64,000 nucleotides of DNA from Prevotellaceae bacterium (GCA_028726625.1 JAQYPT010000048.1:47853-111852), one strand, 5' to 3'. Shown: positions 2,498 to 64,000, counted from the stretch's first letter. Notes: generated by a model not told the origin, from the sequence alone. A program made the numbers and translations.

Positions 2498-4687
2498 TTA
2501 CCTGATGAACATCAGTTCGCGGTATTTGGGTAACGTCCAAAGCTCGTCGCTGACGATCAGTTCGAGTTTATCTATATGATAGCGTATGGTTTCTATCTTT
2601 GGTTCAACGTTGTCATGGTAGGCGATGGCCTTCTCTCTCTCGTTCTCTATCTTGTTGGCAACCTTGCGCGCATTGATCAATTCTTCCACTCCTGTTTCGA
2701 TGATCTTTGTACGCTCAGCAATCTCCAGAATAATCTTTTTGTTGCGACAGGTCAGCTTTTCCGCTTCCTCACGGTCAAAAATCTCGAACATACGCGCCAC
2801 GTTGTTGGCCAATTGACTTTGATAATAGGTCGCAACTGGAATGATATGGTTCATCGTAAGATCACCCATAACGCGTGCTTCAATCTGTATTTTCTTGGTA
2901 TACATTTCCCATTTCACCTCATTGCGCGCCACCAACTCGCTCCGTGTCATCACCCCTGTGCTTTCAAACATCTTGATGCTGTCTTCGTCAAGATAACGGT
3001 CAAAGATGACTGGACAACTGTTTTCACAGTCCAGACCACGTCGCTTAGCTTCTTCCACCCATTCTTCACTGTACCCATTGCCATCAAAATGGATGGGCTT
3101 GCATGTCTTAATATCCTCACGAAGGACATCAATGATTGCCGATGTTTGGTCTTCACCTTGCTCAATCAGCGCATCCACGCGCTTCTTGAAGTTAGTCAAA
3201 GCCTCCGCCATGGCCGCATTGAGCACCAGCATGGAACAGGCACAGTTGGCTTCTGAGCCTACGGCGCGGAACTCAAAGCGATTACCTGTGAAGGCAAACG
3301 GACTGGTTCTGTTGCGGTCTGTATTGTCTATGAACAGCTCAGGAATCTCTGGAATGTCCAACATCATCCCCTGTTTACCGTGCAAGGTGAACAAGTCTTC
3401 TTTGTCAGCCACCTCAATATGGTTCAACAACTCAGTGAGTTGCGTACCCAAGAACGATGAAATGATGGCGGGTGGTGCCTCGTTTGCACCCAATCGATGG
3501 GCGTTGGTGGCACTCATGATGGATGCCTTGAGCAGTCCGTTGTGTTTGTATACACTCATCAACGTTTCCACCAAGAACACTACGAAGCGCAAGTTGTCCT
3601 CGGCTGTCTTGCCTGGTGCATGCAGCAACACGCCCGTATCGGTGCACAAGCTCCAGTTGTTGTGCTTGCCACTGCCGTTCACTCCGGCAAAAGGTTTCTC
3701 GTGTAACAGCACACGAAAACCATGTCTACGTGCCACACGTTTCATCAGTGACATGAGCAACATATTGTGATCGATGGCCAAGTTGCACTCCTCGAAGATG
3801 GGAGCCAACTCAAATTGGTTGGGTGCCACCTCGTTGTGACGGGTCTTACACGGTATACCAAGCTCGAGAGCCTGTATCTCCAAGTCTTTCATGAACGCCT
3901 GCACACGATCTGGAATGGTACCCAAATAATGGTCATCCATTTGCTGATTCTTGGCAGAATCATGCCCCATGAGCGTACGACCCGTTAACATCAGGTCGGG
4001 ACGCGCATGGTATAAATCCTCGTCTACCAGGAAATATTCCTGTTCCCAGCCCAAATTGGCCCGCACTTTCTTCACGTTAGGATCGAAATAGCGACAAACT
4101 TGCGTTGCTGCCACATCCACTGCATGGAGCGAACGCAGCAGAGGAGCCTTGTAATCAAGGGCCTCACCCGTATACGATATGAAGATAGTAGGAATACAAA
4201 GCGTATCATCAATGATGAAAACTGGTGACGTTGGATCCCAAGCCGAATAGCCTCGCGCCTCAAAAGTGTTGCGAATGCCTCCGTTGGGAAACGAAGATGA
4301 GTCGGCTTCTTGCTGAACTAACAACTTTCCACTAAACTCTTCAATCATGCCACCCTTACCGTCAAACTCCACAAAGGCGTCATGTTTCTCGGCAGTTCCT
4401 TCCGTCAAAGGCTGAAACCAGTGCGTATAATGGGTCACACCGTTTTCCTGTGCCCAGTGTTTCATACCCGTTGCCACGGCATCTGCAATGGAACGATTGA
4501 AATGGGCACCATTGTCAATCACATCAGTGAGTTGCTGGAACACGTCTTCCGGCAGGTATTTTTGCATTTTTGCACGGTTAAAGACGTATTTACCAAAGTA
4601 CTCTGAAGGCCTTTCCTTAGGAGCCTTCACAGCCAATGGGGCTTTTTTTGAAGCCTCAATAACTGCTTTAAATCTGAAATTTTCCAT
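2498..4687 (-). CDS. glnA: Glutamine synthetase type III
   Basis: 729 aa with GSIII motifs THYTHWFQPLT, HNEVAPNQFE, NGSGKHNNWS, DRNRTSPFAFTGNRFEFR. Confidence 0.95.
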   Translation of the reverse strand: MENFRFKAVIEASKKAPLAVKAPKERPSEYFGKYVFNRAKMQKYLPEDVFQQLTDVIDNGAHFNRSIADAVATGMKHWAQENGVTHYTHWFQPLTEGTAEKHDAFVEFDGKGGMIEEFSGKLLVQQEADSSSFPNGGIRNTFEARGYSAWDPTSPVFIIDDTLCIPTIFISYTGEALDYKAPLLRSLHAVDVAATQVCRYFDPNVKKVRANLGWEQEYFLVDEDLYHARPDLMLTGRTLMGHDSAKNQQMDDHYLGTIPDRVQAFMKDLEIQALELGIPCKTRHNEVAPNQFELAPIFEECNLAIDHNMLLMSLMKRVARRHGFRVLLHEKPFAGVNGSGKHNNWSLCTDTGVLLHAPGKTAEDNLRFVVFLVETLMSVYKHNGLLKASIMSATNAHRLGANEAPPAIISSFLGTQLTELLNHIEVADKEDLFTLHGKQGMMLDIPEIPELFIDNTDRNRTSPFAFTGNRFEFRAVGSEANCACSMLVLNAAMAEALTNFKKRVDALIEQGEDQTSAIIDVLREDIKTCKPIHFDGNGYSEEWVEEAKRRGLDCENSCPVIFDRYLDEDSIKMFESTGVMTRSELVARNEVKWEMYTKKIQIEARVMGDLTMNHIIPVATYYQSQLANNVARMFEIFDREEAEKLTCRNKKIILEIAERTKIIETGVEELINARKVANKIENEREKAIAYHDNVEPKIETIRYHIDKLELIVSDELWTLPKYRELMFIR

Positions 4688-14118: not shown

Positions 14119-16134
14119 ATGAAAACAACGATAGTATCTGTCCTTTTTCTCATCATGGGTTGCTTGCAAGGCTTGTCCCAAATAGGTTCTTGGAAAGTAT
14201 ATCCTGCCTATCACGACATAACGGACGTGCAACCGGCAGGTAACATCGTATATGTGTTGGCGTCGGGTGGATTATTTTGCTATGATAAAAATGACAACAG
14301 CATACAAACTTTTGATAAGAAAACAGGCTTGAATGATGTTGAAATAAGCCACATTGCTTATAGTTCTGCGGCAAAAAGATTGATTATTGTCTACAAAAAC
14401 AACAACATTGACTTGCTGGATGGTAAGGGAAATGTTACCAATATCGCTGACTATTATAAAAAATCGCTGACAGAAGACAAAACCATTCACAGCATCTATG
14501 TGAATGGAATCTATGCTTATTTGTCTACAGGATTTGGTATTGTCAAGCTCAATGTGAGTGATGCCGAAATTAGTGATACTTATTTTCTGGGTTTTCGCGT
14601 AGATTGGACATTTATACAGCAAAACAAAATCATTGCAGCATCAATGACCCATGGAAAATATGCTGCTGATTTGTCTACTAATTTACTTGACAAAAAGAAT
14701 TGGAAAAGAATAGGAAACTATTCTGAAAACAACAAAGAAGTAGACAAAGAACTATGGAATAAAATGGAAAGCATGCGTCCGGAAGGTCCGCAATACAACC
14801 ATTTTTATTTTCTAAAGTTTGTCAATAACCGCCTTTATACTTCGGGAGGAGGCTTTGAAGCAGAAGGTGTTAGCCTCTCACATCCAGGCATTATCCAAGT
14901 ACTTGACAATGGCCAATGGCACATCTATCAAGACGATATCCAAAAAACAACAGGCTATTCGTATGCAGATATCAATTGTTTAGCCATCGACCCTAAAGAT
15001 ATAAACCACGTTTTTGCAGGAGGAAGAACCGGAGTTTACGAATTTCAAAACGGTAAACTCACCAAATATTACAATAAAGACAACAGTATTCTGATGCCAG
15101 CAGTGGATAAAGGAAAAGAACTGGATAATGAATATGTTCCCATCAACGGCCTGCTGTTCGATGAAGAGCGTCATCTTTGGATATTAAATAACCAAACAAA
15201 GGGACAAAGCATCATCGAATTACTGCCAGATGGAACCATGAAATCACACCATCAACCATCGCTGATGCAAAATGGAGTGAGCCCCAGTTTGCTCTATCAT
15301 CCCATGTTTGACAGTCGAGGCTTATTGTGGTTCGGCAACGGGAACTACAAGTTTCCGGCACTGTTTTGTTATGATAGGAAGACTGAAACGCTGCACACGA
15401 TAACCAATTTCATCAACCAAGATGGAAACAGTCTAAGAACAACAGCAGTAAAATATATCGCTGAAGATATGGAGAACAATCTTTGGATTGGTACAAACAC
15501 AGGAGTATTGCTGCTTGAAGCTTCAAAAATGAATCAACTACCCGATGTTACTTTCACACAAATAAAGATTCCTCGCAATGACGGAACTAACTTAGCTGAC
15601 TATTTATTGGCAGGAGTAGACATTACCTGCATTGCAGTTGACAAGAGTAACCGCAAATGGTTTGGCACAGGAAGTAATGGAGTATATCTCATCAGTGCTG
15701 ATAACAACCAGCAAATTCATCATTTTACCATAGCAAACAGCGTATTACCTTCTAACCATATAGAAAGCATTGCCATCAATAATCAAACAGGAGAAGTGTT
15801 TTTTGGGACAGACAAAGGACTTTGTTCTTTTCAAAGTGACGCCACCGAGGCAGTGGAATCAATGAACAAAGACGTTACCTACGCATACCCAAATCCAGTA
15901 GAACCCTCTTACAATGGCCCTATAACGGTTGTCGGACTCAGCTATCAAGCCGACATCAAAATAGTAACTGTCAATGGCACCTTAGTGACTAAAGGCAAAA
16001 GCAATGGCGGAACTTTCGTGTGGGATGGTAACGATATGAATGGTAACCCGGTGGCATCGGGCATCTATATGGTACAAACTGCCGACCAAACTGGCAACAA
16101 AGGAACTGTATGCAAAATCGCTATCGTCAGATAA
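14119..16134 (+). CDS. porZ: PorZ-like beta-propeller protein with C-terminal Ig/T9SS-type domain
   Basis: Signal peptide, propeller repeats (IAVDKSNRKWFGT, LWIGT), 'GEVFFGTDKGLCSF', and C-terminal 'AYPNPV...WDG.DMNG.PVASGIY'. Confidence 0.75.
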   Translation: MKTTIVSVLFLIMGCLQGLSQIGSWKVYPAYHDITDVQPAGNIVYVLASGGLFCYDKNDNSIQTFDKKTGLNDVEISHIAYSSAAKRLIIVYKNNNIDLLDGKGNVTNIADYYKKSLTEDKTIHSIYVNGIYAYLSTGFGIVKLNVSDAEISDTYFLGFRVDWTFIQQNKIIAASMTHGKYAADLSTNLLDKKNWKRIGNYSENNKEVDKELWNKMESMRPEGPQYNHFYFLKFVNNRLYTSGGGFEAEGVSLSHPGIIQVLDNGQWHIYQDDIQKTTGYSYADINCLAIDPKDINHVFAGGRTGVYEFQNGKLTKYYNKDNSILMPAVDKGKELDNEYVPINGLLFDEERHLWILNNQTKGQSIIELLPDGTMKSHHQPSLMQNGVSPSLLYHPMFDSRGLLWFGNGNYKFPALFCYDRKTETLHTITNFINQDGNSLRTTAVKYIAEDMENNLWIGTNTGVLLLEASKMNQLPDVTFTQIKIPRNDGTNLADYLLAGVDITCIAVDKSNRKWFGTGSNGVYLISADNNQQIHHFTIANSVLPSNHIESIAINNQTGEVFFGTDKGLCSFQSDATEAVESMNKDVTYAYPNPVEPSYNGPITVVGLSYQADIKIVTVNGTLVTKGKSNGGTFVWDGNDMNGNPVASGIYMVQTADQTGNKGTVCKIAIVR

Positions 16135-19923: not shown

Positions 19924-20290
19924 GAATTTTCTTGACAAGCAACCGTTTTATTTTGAGCGTATTTGCAAGCAACTCTTCATCCGTTTGCAAATACGCCAAA
20001 TATACGTTGATTTTGTATATAATTGACACATAATAAAATACAGCTTTCAACCATGGTTATACCCCTTCATTTTTACTTTTTTCAGGTTAAACACATTGCT
20101 TTTAGGCTTCAATATGCATGCTTTTGGTGTGTTAAGCCTTGTAAATTGACCGGCAAAGTCGTATATATTGAACCTTAAACGCATTGCTGTTGTCTTAAAA
20201 TTTAATTTTTCTTGCTTCATGATAGCTAGTTTGCATACTCTATGCCTAGTGAATTTTTCCAGATTGAAAGTTTTGAAGTGCTGTTTTAGG
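19924..20290 (+). repeat. ~366-bp dispersed intergenic element, copy 2
   Basis: AATTTTCTTGACA ... GCGTATTTGCAA-N16-TTGCAAATACGC ... ATTGAAAGTTTTGAAGTGCTGTTTTAGG; same length and landmarks as copies 1 and 3. Confidence 0.8.
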
Positions 20291-20619
20291 GGTATTATTT
20301 GGTTAAAAAATTCTACATTTTTTTAGGTAGTGGCGTGATTTATCACGTTCAGAAATGCAGTAGTATTGCAAATCATCACGCATCTACCTATCTATTAATG
20401 TCTGTTTTCTATTTTTGTTGGTGTCACCTATTATATAACTCTATAAATTACAGCAATTTTCAACAAAACAAGTATTAAAATTGCACAATATAGGGTATAA
20501 TGTGCAATATGAGGTACTTTTTTCGATAAAACATTTGTAGATGTGAATAAAAATTTGTTCCTTTGCAACCGTATTTTTGATTGAGAATCACTTATAAACA
20601 TTTTAAAAAAGTTACAATT

Positions 20620-33011: not shown

Positions 33012-33057
33012 TTGACGAGTAGACAAGTTAACAAGTTGACAAGTTAATAGTTAATGG
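33012..33057 (+). repeat. Octamer tandem array TTGACRAG (half element)
   Basis: TTGACGAG TAGACAAG TTAACAAG TTGACAAG TTAATAG TTAATGG, starting 5 nt after the TBDR stop. Confidence 0.85.
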
Positions 33058-58509: not shown

Positions 58510-58510
58510 A

Positions 58511-58550
58511 TTGATGAGTTGACGAGTTAACAAGCTGACGAGTAGACAAG
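58511..58550 (+). repeat. Left octamer array of four-helix-bundle element
   Basis: TTGATGAG TTGACGAG TTAACAAG CTGACGAG TAGACAAG, starting 1 nt after the sdhA stop. Confidence 0.88.
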
Positions 58551-58605
58551 ATGATAGTGAATTCGTGAGGTTCTTCTCATAGCTAATATGTAATCCGAAT
58601 TGGAT

Positions 58606-58965
58606 ATGAAATCTACGCACAAAGACTTGATTGTTTGGCAAAAGAGCATCATTCTTGTGAAAAGGATTTATCAAGTAACGAGATGTTTTCCATATGAAGA
58701 ACTCATGGGAATCTCCTCTCAAATGCGTAGAGCTGCAATTTCAATACCTTCAAACATAGCTGAAGGTTATGGAAGAGGAACGACAAAAGAGTTGTTACAT
58801 TTCTTATATATAGCCTTGGGTTCAGCTTCTGAATTGGATACTCAAATTATTCTCTGTAAAGAGTTGGGCTTTATCATTGATTTGGAGGCTTACCAAGAAC
58901 TCTATCAATTAAATATAGAAGTCTTAAAAATGCTAACAGCACTCATTAAAAGTCAACAACAATAG
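58606..58965 (+). CDS. Four helix bundle protein (23S rRNA intervening-sequence protein / Avd-like)
   Basis: HKDLIVWQKS, FPYEE, SQMRRAAISIPSNIAEG.GR, FLYIALGSASELDTQ. Confidence 0.92.
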   Translation: MKSTHKDLIVWQKSIILVKRIYQVTRCFPYEELMGISSQMRRAAISIPSNIAEGYGRGTTKELLHFLYIALGSASELDTQIILCKELGFIIDLEAYQELYQLNIEVLKMLTALIKSQQQ

Positions 58966-59039
58966 ACAAAATATTCATAAAATCGTTGTATTTAAAATAT
59001 ATAGCAATCTATAAATTTGTTGTAACTATTGAAAAAAGT

Positions 59040-59080
59040 CTATTAACTTGTAAACTTGTCAACTCGTAAACTCGTAAACT
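59040..59080 (-). repeat. Right (inverted) octamer array of four-helix-bundle element
   Basis: CTATTAA CTTGTAAA CTTGTCAA CTCGTAAA CTCGTAAA CT, which is the reverse complement of TT(G/T)ACRAG units. It ends 15 nt before the sdhB ATG. Confidence 0.88.
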
Positions 59081-59095
59081 AAAAAAATACAAGCC

Positions 59096-61707: not shown

Positions 61708-62664
61708 ATGGTGACTACTTCTCCTACAAAACAACAGACAAGAATCTTGGAGTTAGATTATCTCAAGTGTGTGTTTATTCTCTTGATGATAGTTTTTCAC
61801 CTTGTCTATATTGGCAATCGCTATCCCGTTGCCAAGGCTTTTGTGTACACGTTCCACATGCCTGGATTTCTCATTATTTCGGGTTATCTGCTTCATGTAC
61901 AGAAGCCTGTTCCGCAGTTCTTGCGCTATATACAGTGGATTCTCGTACCTTATTTGCTGATGGAGAGTGGGTATGTGGCCATGGCGTCCGTCTTACCCAT
62001 TCGTGAACATATTCAGCAGCTCACCTTTGGCTTGTTTCTTGATAAACTGTTTTTACACCCTTTAGGACCTTACTGGTACCTGCACACACTGATGTTGTGT
62101 GGAATCGTTACCTATGTAATAGCCCAATTTGCGGGTCGTCATCGTTTGTTAATGCTGATTGGCGTGTTGCTATGTTTGTGGGTGTTGGCACTTTTGGGAC
62201 TTGTTACTTTGATCAATGCCGTGTATTTTTGTGTAGGTGTCGCATTGCGTCTGTATCATCGTCCATTCGTTGATACATTTCACCCTGCATGGTGGTCGTT
62301 CATTGGGATTGTATTGGTTGTCACTTGTGTGCCAAATGCACTTCAAAGGCACACCATAGGTGGCATGCTCATCGTGTATTTCGTTATCTCTTTTTTGCTT
62401 TGGCTGTATCCCTATTTACCCAAAGAAGTGGTGAAAATCTCCCATTTCATCGGTAGAAATTCTCTTATCCTGTTGCTTTTCTCTCCCATGTTTACGGTGC
62501 TTTCCAAGCTGTTTCAGTCCTATCTGTTGTTCGAACCGTCAGGAATGCTTTTCATGTTGGTAGCTTTGCTGTTTACGGTAGTTGGCAGTTTCACCGTTGC
62601 CTATACCTTGCAAAAGTTGCATATAGCACAGTATATGTTTGGAAAGTCAAGGATTATCAAGTGA
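61708..62664 (+). CDS. Acyltransferase family 3 membrane protein
   Basis: 'RILELDYLKCVFILLMIVFH', 'YTFHMPGFLIISGY', 'GPYWYL', about 10 TM helices. Confidence 0.8.
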   Translation: MVTTSPTKQQTRILELDYLKCVFILLMIVFHLVYIGNRYPVAKAFVYTFHMPGFLIISGYLLHVQKPVPQFLRYIQWILVPYLLMESGYVAMASVLPIREHIQQLTFGLFLDKLFLHPLGPYWYLHTLMLCGIVTYVIAQFAGRHRLLMLIGVLLCLWVLALLGLVTLINAVYFCVGVALRLYHRPFVDTFHPAWWSFIGIVLVVTCVPNALQRHTIGGMLIVYFVISFLLWLYPYLPKEVVKISHFIGRNSLILLLFSPMFTVLSKLFQSYLLFEPSGMLFMLVALLFTVVGSFTVAYTLQKLHIAQYMFGKSRIIK

Positions 62665-62698
62665 CCACCCATCTGTTTGTCTTTTTTGGAGCTTCCTG

Positions 62699-63340
62699 TC
62701 ATTCGATTGGCTTTTTCCTAATGATGGTCAAACCGTCGCGAATGGGCAAGATTACTTTTTCCACTCGTGCATCTTGGGCGATGAAATCGTTAAATTGGGC
62801 AATCCCTTGTGTCTGTGCATCGTGTAGGTAGTGCGGATCGATGACATGTCCGTCCCACAACGTATTATCGGCAAGAATGAATCCACCAGGTCGCAATAGC
62901 TTCAACACCGTTTCGTATGTCTCTATATAAGTGCGCTTGTCACCGTCGATAAACGCCATGTCAAACACGACATTTAGCTTGGGAGCTTCCACGTTTGCGT
63001 CGCCAATGATGAAATGAATCTTGGATGCCACAGGACTGTTTTCTATCCATGGCCGTGTAAAATCCTCCATTTCATCGTTGATTTCAAACGTATACAGCCG
63101 ACCGTCTTCATCCAATCCCTCCGCCATACAAATGGCACTGTAGCCACTGAAGGTACCTACTTCTAAAACATTCTTAGGGCGAATCATTTCTACCAACATC
63201 TTGAGCAGCCGCCCTTGCAAATGTCCACTGGCCATACGTCCATGCACGGTGTGGATGTTTGTGGCGCGATAAAGGCGGTATAGATAATCGCCTTCGGCAT
63301 CAATGTGTGCGAGCAGATAGCGTTCTAATTCAGTATTCAT
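62699..63340 (-). CDS. SAM-dependent O-methyltransferase (CCoAOMT/TrmR-like)
   Basis: MASGHLQG, LEVGTFSGYS, FDMAFIDGDK, GGFILADNTLW, LPIRDGLT. Confidence 0.88.
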   Translation of the reverse strand: MNTELERYLLAHIDAEGDYLYRLYRATNIHTVHGRMASGHLQGRLLKMLVEMIRPKNVLEVGTFSGYSAICMAEGLDEDGRLYTFEINDEMEDFTRPWIENSPVASKIHFIIGDANVEAPKLNVVFDMAFIDGDKRTYIETYETVLKLLRPGGFILADNTLWDGHVIDPHYLHDAQTQGIAQFNDFIAQDARVEKVILPIRDGLTIIRKKPIE

Positions 63341-63354
63341 AGGTAGTTATTTAG

Positions 63355-63572
63355 TTTACGAGTTTACAAGTTTACGAGTTGACAAGTTGATAGTTTTGTT
63401 GTTGGAGTATTTCATGATCATTCCTCTTACAAGCCATTAACTCGTGAACTTGTGAACTCGTTAACTCGTCAACTATCCATAGTTGTTTTGTTGGACTATT
63501 TCACGTTCGTTCCTATAGCAAGCCATTAACTTGTCAACTCGTTAACTCGTAAACTTGTCAACTTATCAACTA
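63355..63572 (-). repeat. Gene-less octamer-array element between aroQ and O-methyltransferase
   Basis: Three arrays of TT(G/A/T/C)ACRAG units, two in sense and one inverted, separated by two ~50-nt spacers similar to each other. Confidence 0.88.
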
Positions 63573-63986
63573 TCTAACTACTGCCTCGATGGCCAATTTA
63601 TACGAGTTCAACCCAAAGCCTGCAATAACCCCTTTGCATGCCGATGAAATCATGCTTTTATGACGAAACTCCTCTCGGGCGTGAACGTTCGAGATATGAA
63701 CCTCAACGACAGGCGTGGTAATCGAGCGGATACAGTCGAGCAAGGCAATGCTGGTGTGGGTGTAAGCGCCTGCGTTGAGCACGATGCCATCGTACGAAAA
63801 GCCCACCTCTTGCAGCTTGTCAATAAGTTCCCCCTCAATGTTGCTTTGGTAATAATCAATCTCCATCTGTGTAAAATCGTGGCGCAACTTCTGTAAAAAC
63901 TCGTCAAACGAGCGATTACCGTAAATGTCTGGCTCCCGTTTGCCCAGCAAGTTGAGGTTCGGGCCGTTGATGATCATTATTTTCAT
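63570..63986 (-). CDS. aroQ: Type II 3-dehydroquinate dehydratase
   Basis: NGPNLNLLGKREPDIYG, NAGAYTHTS, EVHISNVHAREEFR. Confidence 0.96.
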   Translation of the reverse strand: MKIMIINGPNLNLLGKREPDIYGNRSFDEFLQKLRHDFTQMEIDYYQSNIEGELIDKLQEVGFSYDGIVLNAGAYTHTSIALLDCIRSITTPVVEVHISNVHAREEFRHKSMISSACKGVIAGFGLNSYKLAIEAVVR

Positions 63987-64000
63987 AATTCGCCTTATTT

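Follow-up and report, generated by a model that had tools for sequence, protein, structure and literature searches.

A non-coding octamer-array foldback between aroQ and an O-methyltransferase gene, a copy of a dispersed intergenic repeat family of Prevotella

In the 64,000-nucleotide (nt) stretch of DNA analysed here (the window; Prevotellaceae bacterium, GCA_028726625.1 JAQYPT010000048.1:47853-111852), the genes for type II 3-dehydroquinate dehydratase (aroQ) and a class I S-adenosylmethionine (SAM)-dependent O-methyltransferase are separated by 229 nt (63341-63569), read on the minus strand as the sense strand. As shown in Table 1, this junction is built from tandem octamers of the form TTNACRAG. 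The aroQ stop codon TAG is followed by five sense units, a spacer (S1), four sense units, a second spacer (S2), four inverted units and a short leader that ends at the methyltransferase ATG, exactly as the first-pass annotation of this DNA had described it. Genes were called by an open reading frame (ORF) heuristic. The element is a copy of a lineage-specific, non-coding, dispersed Prevotella repeat family, other copies of which stand elsewhere in the window.

Table 1. Positions of the features at the aroQ/O-methyltransferase junction and at the other TTNACRAG sites of the window (aa, amino acids; FHB, four-helix bundle).
Feature	Position	Strand	Basis or remark
aroQ, type II 3-dehydroquinate dehydratase, 138 aa	63570..63986	-	ORF; TIGR01088 1.7e-55
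aroQ stop codon TAG	63572-63570	-	first octamer directly 3' of stop
Sense array A1, 5 TTNACRAG units: TTGATAAG TTGACAAG TTTACGAG TTAACGAG TTGACAAG	63530..63569	-	pattern match; pairs with inverted array in minimum-free-energy fold
Spacer S1, 57 nt, TTAATGG to CTATGGATAG	63473..63529	-	diverged duplicate of S2
Sense array A2, 4 units: TTGACGAG TTAACGAG TTCACAAG TTCACGAG	63441..63472	-	pattern match; identical in sister species G214
Spacer S2 (hairpin loop), 54 nt, TTAATGG to CTATCAA	63387..63440	-	aligned to S1
Inverted array, 4 CTYGTNAA units: CTTGTCAA CTCGTAAA CTTGTAAA CTCGTAAA	63355..63386	-	3' arm of hairpin
Leader CTAAATAACTACCT, A/C/U-rich, from last degenerate unit (CTAAA...) to start codon	63341..63354	-	unpaired in folds
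Class I SAM-dependent O-methyltransferase (Methyltransf_3), 213 aa, downstream operon gene, ATG at 63340	62699..63340	-	ORF; PF01596 1.6e-52
Sister copy with cargo at sdhA/sdhB	58510..59095	+	inverted array then CTAAAAAAATACAAGCC-ATG; outer arrays pair in fold
sdhA/sdhB sense array	58511-58550	+
sdhA/sdhB FHB gene	58606-58965	+	TIGR02436 1.1e-38
sdhA/sdhB inverted array	59047-59078	+
Solitary TTNACRAG-family sense array without inverted partner	33012..33043	+	5 nt past stop of TonB-dependent receptor gene

The two-unit pattern TTNACRAGTTNACRAG, with at most one mismatch, matches 19 times in the window, against 0.12 matches expected from shuffled sequence, and all 19 lie at four junctions: 33012-33043, 58511-58542 and 59047-59078, and aroQ/methyltransferase. 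Nine independently assembled genomes of the species contain these 229 nt, with one substitution at most, so that an assembly artefact can be discounted, and five of the nine public contigs end inside or just past the element, as is typical of repeats that break assemblies. Only two substitutions occur among the nine contigs, in an otherwise identical block; they carry no information on the rate of single-nucleotide polymorphism in the arrays, and the idea that this rate is raised within the species was dropped. The AroQ protein, at 138 aa, has the modal length among relatives, which shows that the gene is not truncated, and truncation by insertion was rejected on this ground.

S1 and S2 are identical at 41 of 51 positions (80%; alignment score 57 against 13.3 +/- 2.4 for shuffles, p < 0.0005), bearing out the similarity that had been noted by eye, and an [array + spacer] unit of about 89 nt has therefore been duplicated in tandem. 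Neither spacer has another match in the genome, and the loops of other copies are unrelated to them. The copy between sdhA and sdhB, which reads as previously quoted, follows the same grammar with the same unit family: stop codon, sense array, middle, inverted array, CTAAA leader and ATG. The two loci share arrays and end motifs but not interiors, and no similarity was found between S1 or S2 and the flanks of the FHB gene at sdhA/sdhB (p = 0.01 to 0.98), where a kinship had been supposed. The first-pass annotation had proposed an internally deleted or duplicated non-autonomous element, like miniature inverted-repeat transposable elements (MITEs) or bacterial interspersed mosaic elements (BIMEs); the internal duplication and the BIME-like, non-coding mosaic character are upheld, whereas descent from an FHB cassette by deletion is not, since the spacers are unlike the FHB flanks. 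Internal sequence shared among copies, as in a MITE, was found neither elsewhere in the genome nor in the sdhA/sdhB cassette. Only two stand-alone FHB genes are present in the genome against 38 array-bearing intergenic regions, so the gene-less form is the norm and cargo the exception.

The host Prevotella genome (G000; 2.70 Mb, 45.8% G+C, 99.7% complete) contains 62 arrays of at least three units in 38 intergenic regions and none in long ORFs, which cover about 84% of the genome. Tandem repeats are in intergenic excess at period 8 (124 versus 51) and period 16 (47 versus 2); no other class of tandem repeat has a strong excess of this kind, and the TTNACRAG unit dominates these periods. Of the eight unit positions, only 3 and 6 vary freely; the other six are kept over more than 300 units from many species. 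The canonical foldback can be written TAG-(TTNACRAG)n-TTGATAG-loop-CTATCAA-(CTYGTNAA)n-CTAAAAAA. Arrays are preceded by TTTTTTAG, GATAG or TATAG and followed by TTGATAG or TTAATRG; the loop-proximal linkers TTRATRG and CTATCAA recur at other copies of the family, and inverted arrays end in CTAAAAAA, which stands 0-12 nt before an ATG at more than 12 other copies.

The placement of the arrays relative to genes is equally regular. In gaps between co-directional genes, each sense array lies nearer the upstream stop codon, mostly 0-13 nt past it, and nearly all inverted arrays lie nearer the downstream start, mostly 7-24 nt before the ATG; where arrays are paired, the order is always sense-then-inverted and never the reverse. 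For arrays of at least three units, 15 of these gaps hold an inverted array only and 8 a sense array only; two inverted arrays, a sense-inverted pair and a sense-sense-inverted set are each found in 2 gaps, the last set being at the aroQ locus and at C56:53072-53318, and a single gap each holds sense-inverted-inverted, sense-sense and four sense arrays. Relative to transcription, 21 arrays are in sense and 25 in inverted orientation. The C56:53072-53318 gap, which lies outside the window, forms a hairpin within a hairpin, with an inner TTTAG...CTAAA element between the loop-proximal linkers of the outer one; this nesting suggests that one copy may have inserted into the centre of another.

In addition, the arrays are joined to other repeat modules. 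Conserved linkers such as TTGATAGYTCAGCTAATCATAAAG connect them to AAAGTTC heptamer arrays or CCCCTCCC hairpins, and the modules found in such combinations include TTCTAG-type arrays and CCCCTCCC/GGGGAGGGG hairpins, so that the whole is a mosaic in the sense of the Escherichia coli BIMEs. Further unit families of the same genome (AAAGTTC, ATAATTC and TTCTAGG) show the same behaviour. G/C-rich hairpins of the form CTCCCCTCCC-TTCG-GGGGAGGGG, together with a conserved linker, precede inverted octamer arrays just upstream of start codons (C24:1648-2290, 3404-3523, 15218-15409 and 20261-20503; C52:4788-4940; C38:23810-24474), and may be a second repeat module, the terminator-like element of this genome. 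Higher-order tandem duplications of [array + short spacer] are also present at C56:68675-68850 (four 48-nt copies), C89:1757-2061, C99:900-1194 and C35:5561-5812, and are the same type of event as the S1/S2 duplication at aroQ.

No dedicated mobilising gene was recognised. PF01797 (Y1_Tnp/RAYT) has no match in the host genome or in the array-rich genome G001, while the controls were matched in six reference genomes, and a repetitive extragenic palindromic (REP) element driven by a RAYT was rejected because neither genome has a Y1 transposase. In a search for an autonomous partner, which was not exhaustive, the FHB gene was the only gene found between paired arrays, and the gene-bracketing array pairs of G001 enclose ordinary housekeeping genes. 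No obvious target-site duplication was seen when filled and empty sites were compared among species that are 70-85% identical, whose spacers cannot be aligned base by base. The element is non-coding, its interior is not conserved, and a cognate Y1 transposase is absent.

Comparison with relatives, each represented by one species representative, places the origin of the element. The adjacency of aroQ and the methyltransferase gene is kept in 22 of 23 same-genus genomes; most spacers of these 22 are shorter than 60 nt, and none has TTNACRAG arrays at the junction. In 73 Prevotella-type genomes where the two genes are directly adjacent, the spacer has a median length of 50 nt and is mostly free of TTNACRAG arrays. 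The empty sites that the first-pass annotation had proposed to look for are thus found in most Prevotella, and compared with most relatives the element is an insertion. In Bacteroides, Phocaeicola, Parabacteroides and Tannerellaceae, aroQ and the methyltransferase gene are separated by a gene of about 1.5 kb, which in B. xylanisolvens is pyruvate kinase (pyk; PF00224, 1.5e-115), in agreement with the arrangement that the first-pass annotation gave for Bacteroides. Because the 73 genomes have mostly short, array-free spacers, the loss of pyk is much older than the insertion, and it is unrelated to the element; the suggestion that the element marks a gene-loss site is not upheld.

The four closest relatives (G214, G114, G109 and G075; methyltransferase 94-98% identical) all carry a TTNACRAG hairpin at the same junction, so the element dates to the ancestor of this five-species clade, in which it entered an originally short intercistronic spacer. 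The junction is 222 nt in G214, with the duplicated layout of the window; 163 nt in G114, with seven sense units and one loop; 141 nt in G109, with four sense units; and 139 nt in G075, with a 22-nt loop. Since the duplicated layout is common to the window and G214, the duplication occurred in the ancestor of these two species; the S2 loop is related to the loops of G114 and G109. Overall, the number of sense units in the sister hairpins is 4-7, the loops measure from 22 to about 50 nt, and one inverted array is combined with one or two sense arrays. Unit number, unit spelling and loop length have been remodelled over a span in which the flanking genes diverged by a few per cent. In the more distant G161, whose methyltransferase is 78% identical, the junction holds an inverted array alone, which is structure-free (minimum free energy -2.0).

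The same junction is occupied by other repeats elsewhere in the genus. In 17 other genomes it holds unrelated 7-9-nt arrays, several as inverted pairs, with units including AATTCAT, TTTTGAA, AATGAGN, GAGTTAN, TTCTTAA and GTCTTATAG. In several other Prevotella species (L067, L049, L043 and L065), the final codons of aroQ and its stop are provided by a foreign array of 7-nt units that runs over the 3' end of the gene, for instance an AroQ end ...FELGVKS* read from GAGTTAN units. An uncultured Prevotella metagenome-assembled genome from a Hadza sample (L046:2911-4119) has a 1.2-kb aroQ-methyltransferase insertion with a 180-aa protein and no Pfam match. In the array-rich G001, arrays stand at non-orthologous junctions whose counterparts in the host genome are empty (34-35 nt). 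Its sdhA/sdhB spacer (L155), of 32 nt, reads TTTCTCTTAGTTGACAACTTAAAAAGACAAAA and looks like a single-unit remnant or a possible seed of a TTNACRAG element (TTAG-TTGACAAC-TTAAAAAG).

Window positions 61200-64930 were also compared with the two sister loci L253 (G214) and L256 (G075). With G214, identity is 93-99% on the methyltransferase side, from 61200 as far as the element's inner half, then 65-75% over aroQ (63750-64200) and 91-97% once more beyond 64350; for G075, it is about 90% on the methyltransferase side and about 72% on the aroQ side. These steps place a mosaic breakpoint at the element in two of the four sister genomes. Such breakpoints lend limited support to the earlier suggestion that the element may mark a recombination site, and they could be due to chance.

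At the RNA level, the 229-nt element is predicted to fold with -70.8 kcal/mol (z = -6.8 against shuffles), with the outer sense array paired to the inverted one and the ~14 nt that precede the ATG left open. All four sister hairpins likewise fold significantly (z = -3.5 to -6.4), and the leader is always unpaired. The variable positions of the two arms agree in 27 of 54 cases, against 46% expected, which is chance level; the stem is therefore imperfect, with a mismatch about every 8 pairs, and a perfect palindrome, or selection for pairing at the variable unit positions, was rejected. Exact pairing is accordingly under no detectable selection at gene-less copies.

Coding and expression signals were searched for with negative results. 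There is no ORF of at least 40 aa within 63341-63569. Both spacers begin with ATG-GCT-TG (MACYRNEREIVQQNNYG and MACKRNDHEILQQQNYQLVNS), giving short MAC... frames, and a small loop peptide was rejected because this frame stops after 3 codons in S1 of G214 and after 8 in G075. An A/U-rich stem interrupted by periodic mismatches, with CUAAAUAAC after it, differs from the G+C-rich stem and U tract of an intrinsic terminator; no terminator-like site or U-tract hairpin occurs in 62600-64000, and a terminator was rejected on this account and because the element lies inside operons. No sigma-70-type promoter site was found in the element, and TAnnTTTG is absent from its sense strand and present once on the antisense strand, so that an internal promoter was rejected as unsupported. 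Rfam gave no match in the window at the gathering score, and the sole match of a permissive search was to a plant miRNA-precursor model, with 24.8 bits against a threshold of 95 bits.

Outside the clade, the three-unit TTNACRAG pattern is found in 54 of 300 Prevotella species, about 16 of which have at least 20 matches, while the reversed control gives about 0. An exact-pattern scan also located arrays in 29 stretches of IMG/VR viral contigs; a blastn search for similar sequence in GenBank phages found none. One orthologous phage junction, represented by six IMG/VR contigs (L168, L170, L172, L179, L182 and L189), has a TTGACRAG hairpin in which the unit number varies and, with the arms fixed, a 27-nt loop is found in either orientation.

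The cargo gene of the sdhA/sdhB copy belongs to PF05635, the 23S rRNA intervening sequence (IVS) protein family; the FHB protein is no transposase, and FHB/Avd-family proteins are not known to break or join DNA. Across 25 Bacteroidales genomes, 17 stand-alone FHB genes were compared with 269 control genes for flanking inverted repeats: all 17 rank at the 93rd percentile of the controls or higher, and 12 of them above the 99th. Tandem units of 7-10 nt make up the arms, and the unit differs at almost every locus. With the FHB loci of 12 further Bacteroidales genomes included, nearly all stand-alone FHB genes stand between inverted arrays of this kind. The second FHB gene of the host genome (C19:13868-14179) lies among AAAGTTC arrays. 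At least eight sampled Prevotella genomes have the sdhA/sdhB FHB cassette, in three arm families: TTNACRAG (G000, G100, G107, G109 and G214), TTTTTAAG/CTCAYAAA (G075 and G225) and GTCGTTTA/AAACGACC (G005); most others have a spacer of 1-46 nt. The FHB protein of G005 is 55% identical to that of the window and its SdhB 88%. In G069, the FHB gene lies directly upstream of sdhB and is followed by inverted TTNACRAG units, its upstream arm being unresolved. The arms thus remain complementary even as one sequence gives way to another; no other evidence speaks as strongly for a role of pairing, at least around an enclosed gene. An FHB gene with matching arms is nevertheless not needed for an abundant array family: the complete genome G231 has 26 array windows and a sole FHB gene with other arms, GGAGTAAGG, and G114 has 44 array windows and no FHB match at E <= 1e-10. 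The FHB gene as driver of its own array family was rejected on these counter-examples.

Taken together, it is fairly probable that the aroQ element is a REP/BIME-like, self-expanding intergenic foldback repeat, grown and shrunk by slippage and unequal recombination and tolerated inside operons. Its arrays would grow by replication slippage and by unequal or ectopic recombination with one another, and new sites would be seeded by recombination or by a factor acting in trans. As aroQ and the methyltransferase gene form an operon, the element would be transcribed inside the mRNA, where it is expected to fold into a long imperfect hairpin, mismatched roughly once in 8 base pairs, that begins at the stop codon and ends ~14 nt short of the start. 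It may be tolerated because its 5' end offers stops in every reading frame and its 3' end an A-rich leader free of structure, and any effect, such as protection of the 3' end of the aroQ segment, a processing site or uncoupling of translation, is predicted to be secondary. Several observations weigh against this picture. No target-site duplication, autonomous copy or enzyme that would explain its spread was found, and the chance-level agreement of the arms also counts against it. The six kept unit positions look more like selection on a recognition motif than like neutral slippage, and the fixation of the element in the nine sampled assemblies, its persistence in the five-species clade and the use of the same grammar by phages would fit a useful function equally. 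Conserved unit positions, persistence through the clade and phage use are the reasons why other explanations stay alive.

The strongest of these explanations, although we consider it rather unlikely, is a selected cis-acting RNA element of operons: the hairpin at the stop codon with an open leader would be an intercistronic punctuation signal that spread because it is useful, as a stabiliser of the upstream cistron's 3' end, a processing site for RNase III or another enzyme, a weak factor-independent terminator, or a means of uncoupling translation that also offers a re-initiation platform. It would account for the strict placement at stops and starts, for a leader that is always unpaired (even the solitary inverted array of G161 being structure-free), for a hairpin kept in five species despite changing unit content, for cassettes at one junction whose two arms have both switched unit between species yet stay complementary, and for the same grammar at phage late-gene junctions; an analogue exists in the TAACTGA repeats upstream of start codons, for which a role in translation has been proposed (PMC4679880). 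Yet most Prevotella run the aroQ-methyltransferase and sdhA-sdhB operons with spacers of 0-50 nt and without the element, which is therefore dispensable; from species to species, the same junction holds many unrelated unit sequences, the arms lack covariation at variable positions, neither a U-tract terminator nor an Rfam family is present, and copies lie inside operons that need read-through (sdhCAB). The six invariant and two free positions, over so many units and species, are what would be expected if each octamer (TT-AC-AG constant) were a site for a sequence-specific RNA- or single-stranded-DNA-binding protein. TRAP and HutP, ring or multi-domain RNA-binding regulators that read spaced NAG triplets, offer a likeness for such arrays, as do the factors of S1, Csp or CsrA type put forward for TAACTGA repeats. 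This would also suit the solitary arrays that have no hairpin partner (15 inverted-only and 8 sense-only intergenic regions) and the position of arrays directly on translation start and stop regions. It is judged improbable all the same, because arrays occur in similar numbers in both orientations to transcription (21 sense, 25 inverted), because several unrelated unit families per genome, and a dozen more in related species, would demand many specific proteins, and because no candidate protein was identified. The model first put forward for the locus, a MITE-like, internally deleted derivative of the sdhA/sdhB cassette with the FHB copy as autonomous master and its protein acting in trans, is highly improbable. 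Arms and end motifs are indeed those of the cassette, both FHB genes of the genome are embedded in its two most abundant array families, TTNACRAG and AAAGTTC, every sampled stand-alone FHB gene (17/17, 12 above the 99th percentile) is bracketed by inverted arrays, and several TTNACRAG-rich genomes have a cassette with TTNACRAG arms. Set against this, the spacers are unlike the FHB gene or its flanks, copies have no common internal sequence, G231 and G114 combine abundant arrays with a mismatched or missing FHB gene, and the co-occurrence of arrays and FHB cassette in G109, G214 and G075 is explained by close kinship.

Beyond the repeat reading favoured for the aroQ copy, a wider and quite doubtful proposal is that foldbacks with array arms form a general and undescribed class of intergenic DNA that renews itself in Bacteroidales and their phages. 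Gene-less hairpins and FHB cassettes would then be two states of one system, the hairpin being an intervening sequence of mRNA that is cut out at its stem by RNase III, by analogy with the 23S IVS; FHB genes would colonise such stems, and selection for excision or foldback-templated repair might keep the arms complementary while their units drift.

A literature search for the repeat sequence and for REP or MITE elements in Prevotella found no relevant description. The repeat class is apparently undescribed, with the aroQ locus as a well-resolved example that is moderately interesting as a single locus. Prevotella is a dominant genus of gut, mouth and rumen, and this class of repeats fills its operon junctions and differs between sister species; it is a probable source of differences in expression between strains. 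The element breaks short-read assemblies of the species and is a ready marker for strain typing. One junction exists in several natural states (empty, single hairpin, duplicated hairpin, inverted array only and unrelated unit families), and this natural series offers a tractable case for the role of intergenic repeats such as REP, short tandemly repeated repetitive (STRR) and TAACTGA arrays. The side result on FHB genes, which ties a protein family that is very common yet enigmatic to a defined nucleic-acid structure, is maybe the most useful lead.

Several known systems resemble the family in part. The foldback (FB) transposons of Drosophila have long inverted arms of short tandem repeats in variable number and a middle that is variable or absent and sometimes contains genes. 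Inverted arms built from tandem repeats and an optional gene cargo are common to both, whereas FB transposons are eukaryotic, of kilobase size and in some copies equipped with a transposase, and the Prevotella element shows no evidence of transposition. The intervening sequences of 23S rRNA consist of an inverted-repeat stem that encloses an optional PF05635 ORF and is cut by RNase III. A stem around an optional FHB gene is exactly the content of the sdhA/sdhB copy; the aroQ copy differs in having no PF05635 ORF between its inverted repeats and in lying in mRNA rather than rRNA, and excision by RNase III would be an analogy. Correia elements (CREE/NEMIS) of Neisseria and BOX elements of Streptococcus pneumoniae are small non-coding intergenic repeats with inverted ends that are co-transcribed and form long hairpins; Correia elements are RNase III substrates with TA target duplications, BOX elements are modular with a variable number of boxB, and no transposase of their own is known for either. 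They differ in having a conserved full-length consensus, whereas in the Prevotella family only the unit and short linkers are conserved and the interior is specific to the locus.

Closer counterparts are found among intergenic short-unit tandem repeats. It has been reported that TAACTGA heptamers are repeated in intergenic DNA of marine Beggiatoaceae, cyanobacteria and a few Bacteroidetes, in 169 direct sets and one inverted set, that the repeats are oriented toward the start codon, and that those just upstream of start codons may act in translation, with S1, Csp or CsrA-type factors proposed (MacGregor 2015, PMC4679880). As far as that paper describes them, heptamer STRR and long simple sequence repeats (LSSR) are related cases (Mrazek 2007, as cited in PMC4679880). 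The Prevotella arrays agree with these, in a comparison that rests on PMC4679880, in being head-to-tail arrays of 7-8-nt units confined to intergenic DNA a few nt from starts or next to stops, with stop codons in all frames, a sporadic phylogenetic distribution, indels of whole units between strains and a mechanism that is not known. They differ from TAACTGA repeats in forming hairpins from inverted pairs, in their fixed sense-then-inverted order, and in their conserved linkers, loops and degenerate unit positions.

REP elements, BIMEs and REPINs of Proteobacteria are alike in being high-copy, strictly extragenic, imperfect palindromes, often just past stop codons inside operons, that are joined into mosaics by conserved linkers, transcribed as hairpins and present in lineage-specific copy number (PMC3733652); the Prevotella family likewise consists of high-copy extragenic imperfect palindromes in linker-joined mosaics. 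A REP element is a single palindrome of 20-40 base pairs headed by a conserved GTAG or CGTC tetranucleotide (PMC3733652), whereas the arms of the Prevotella family repeat an 8-nt unit in tandem, two of its positions being free, there is neither a fixed GTAG or CGTC head nor a RAYT gene in the genome, and the loops are unique sequence of 14 to about 500 nt, able to hold a gene. Intergenic palindromic or mosaic repeats are thus an already known kind, of which the octamer-array family is apparently a member without a published description; it has features of both REP/BIME and TAACTGA repeats and fits neither definition.

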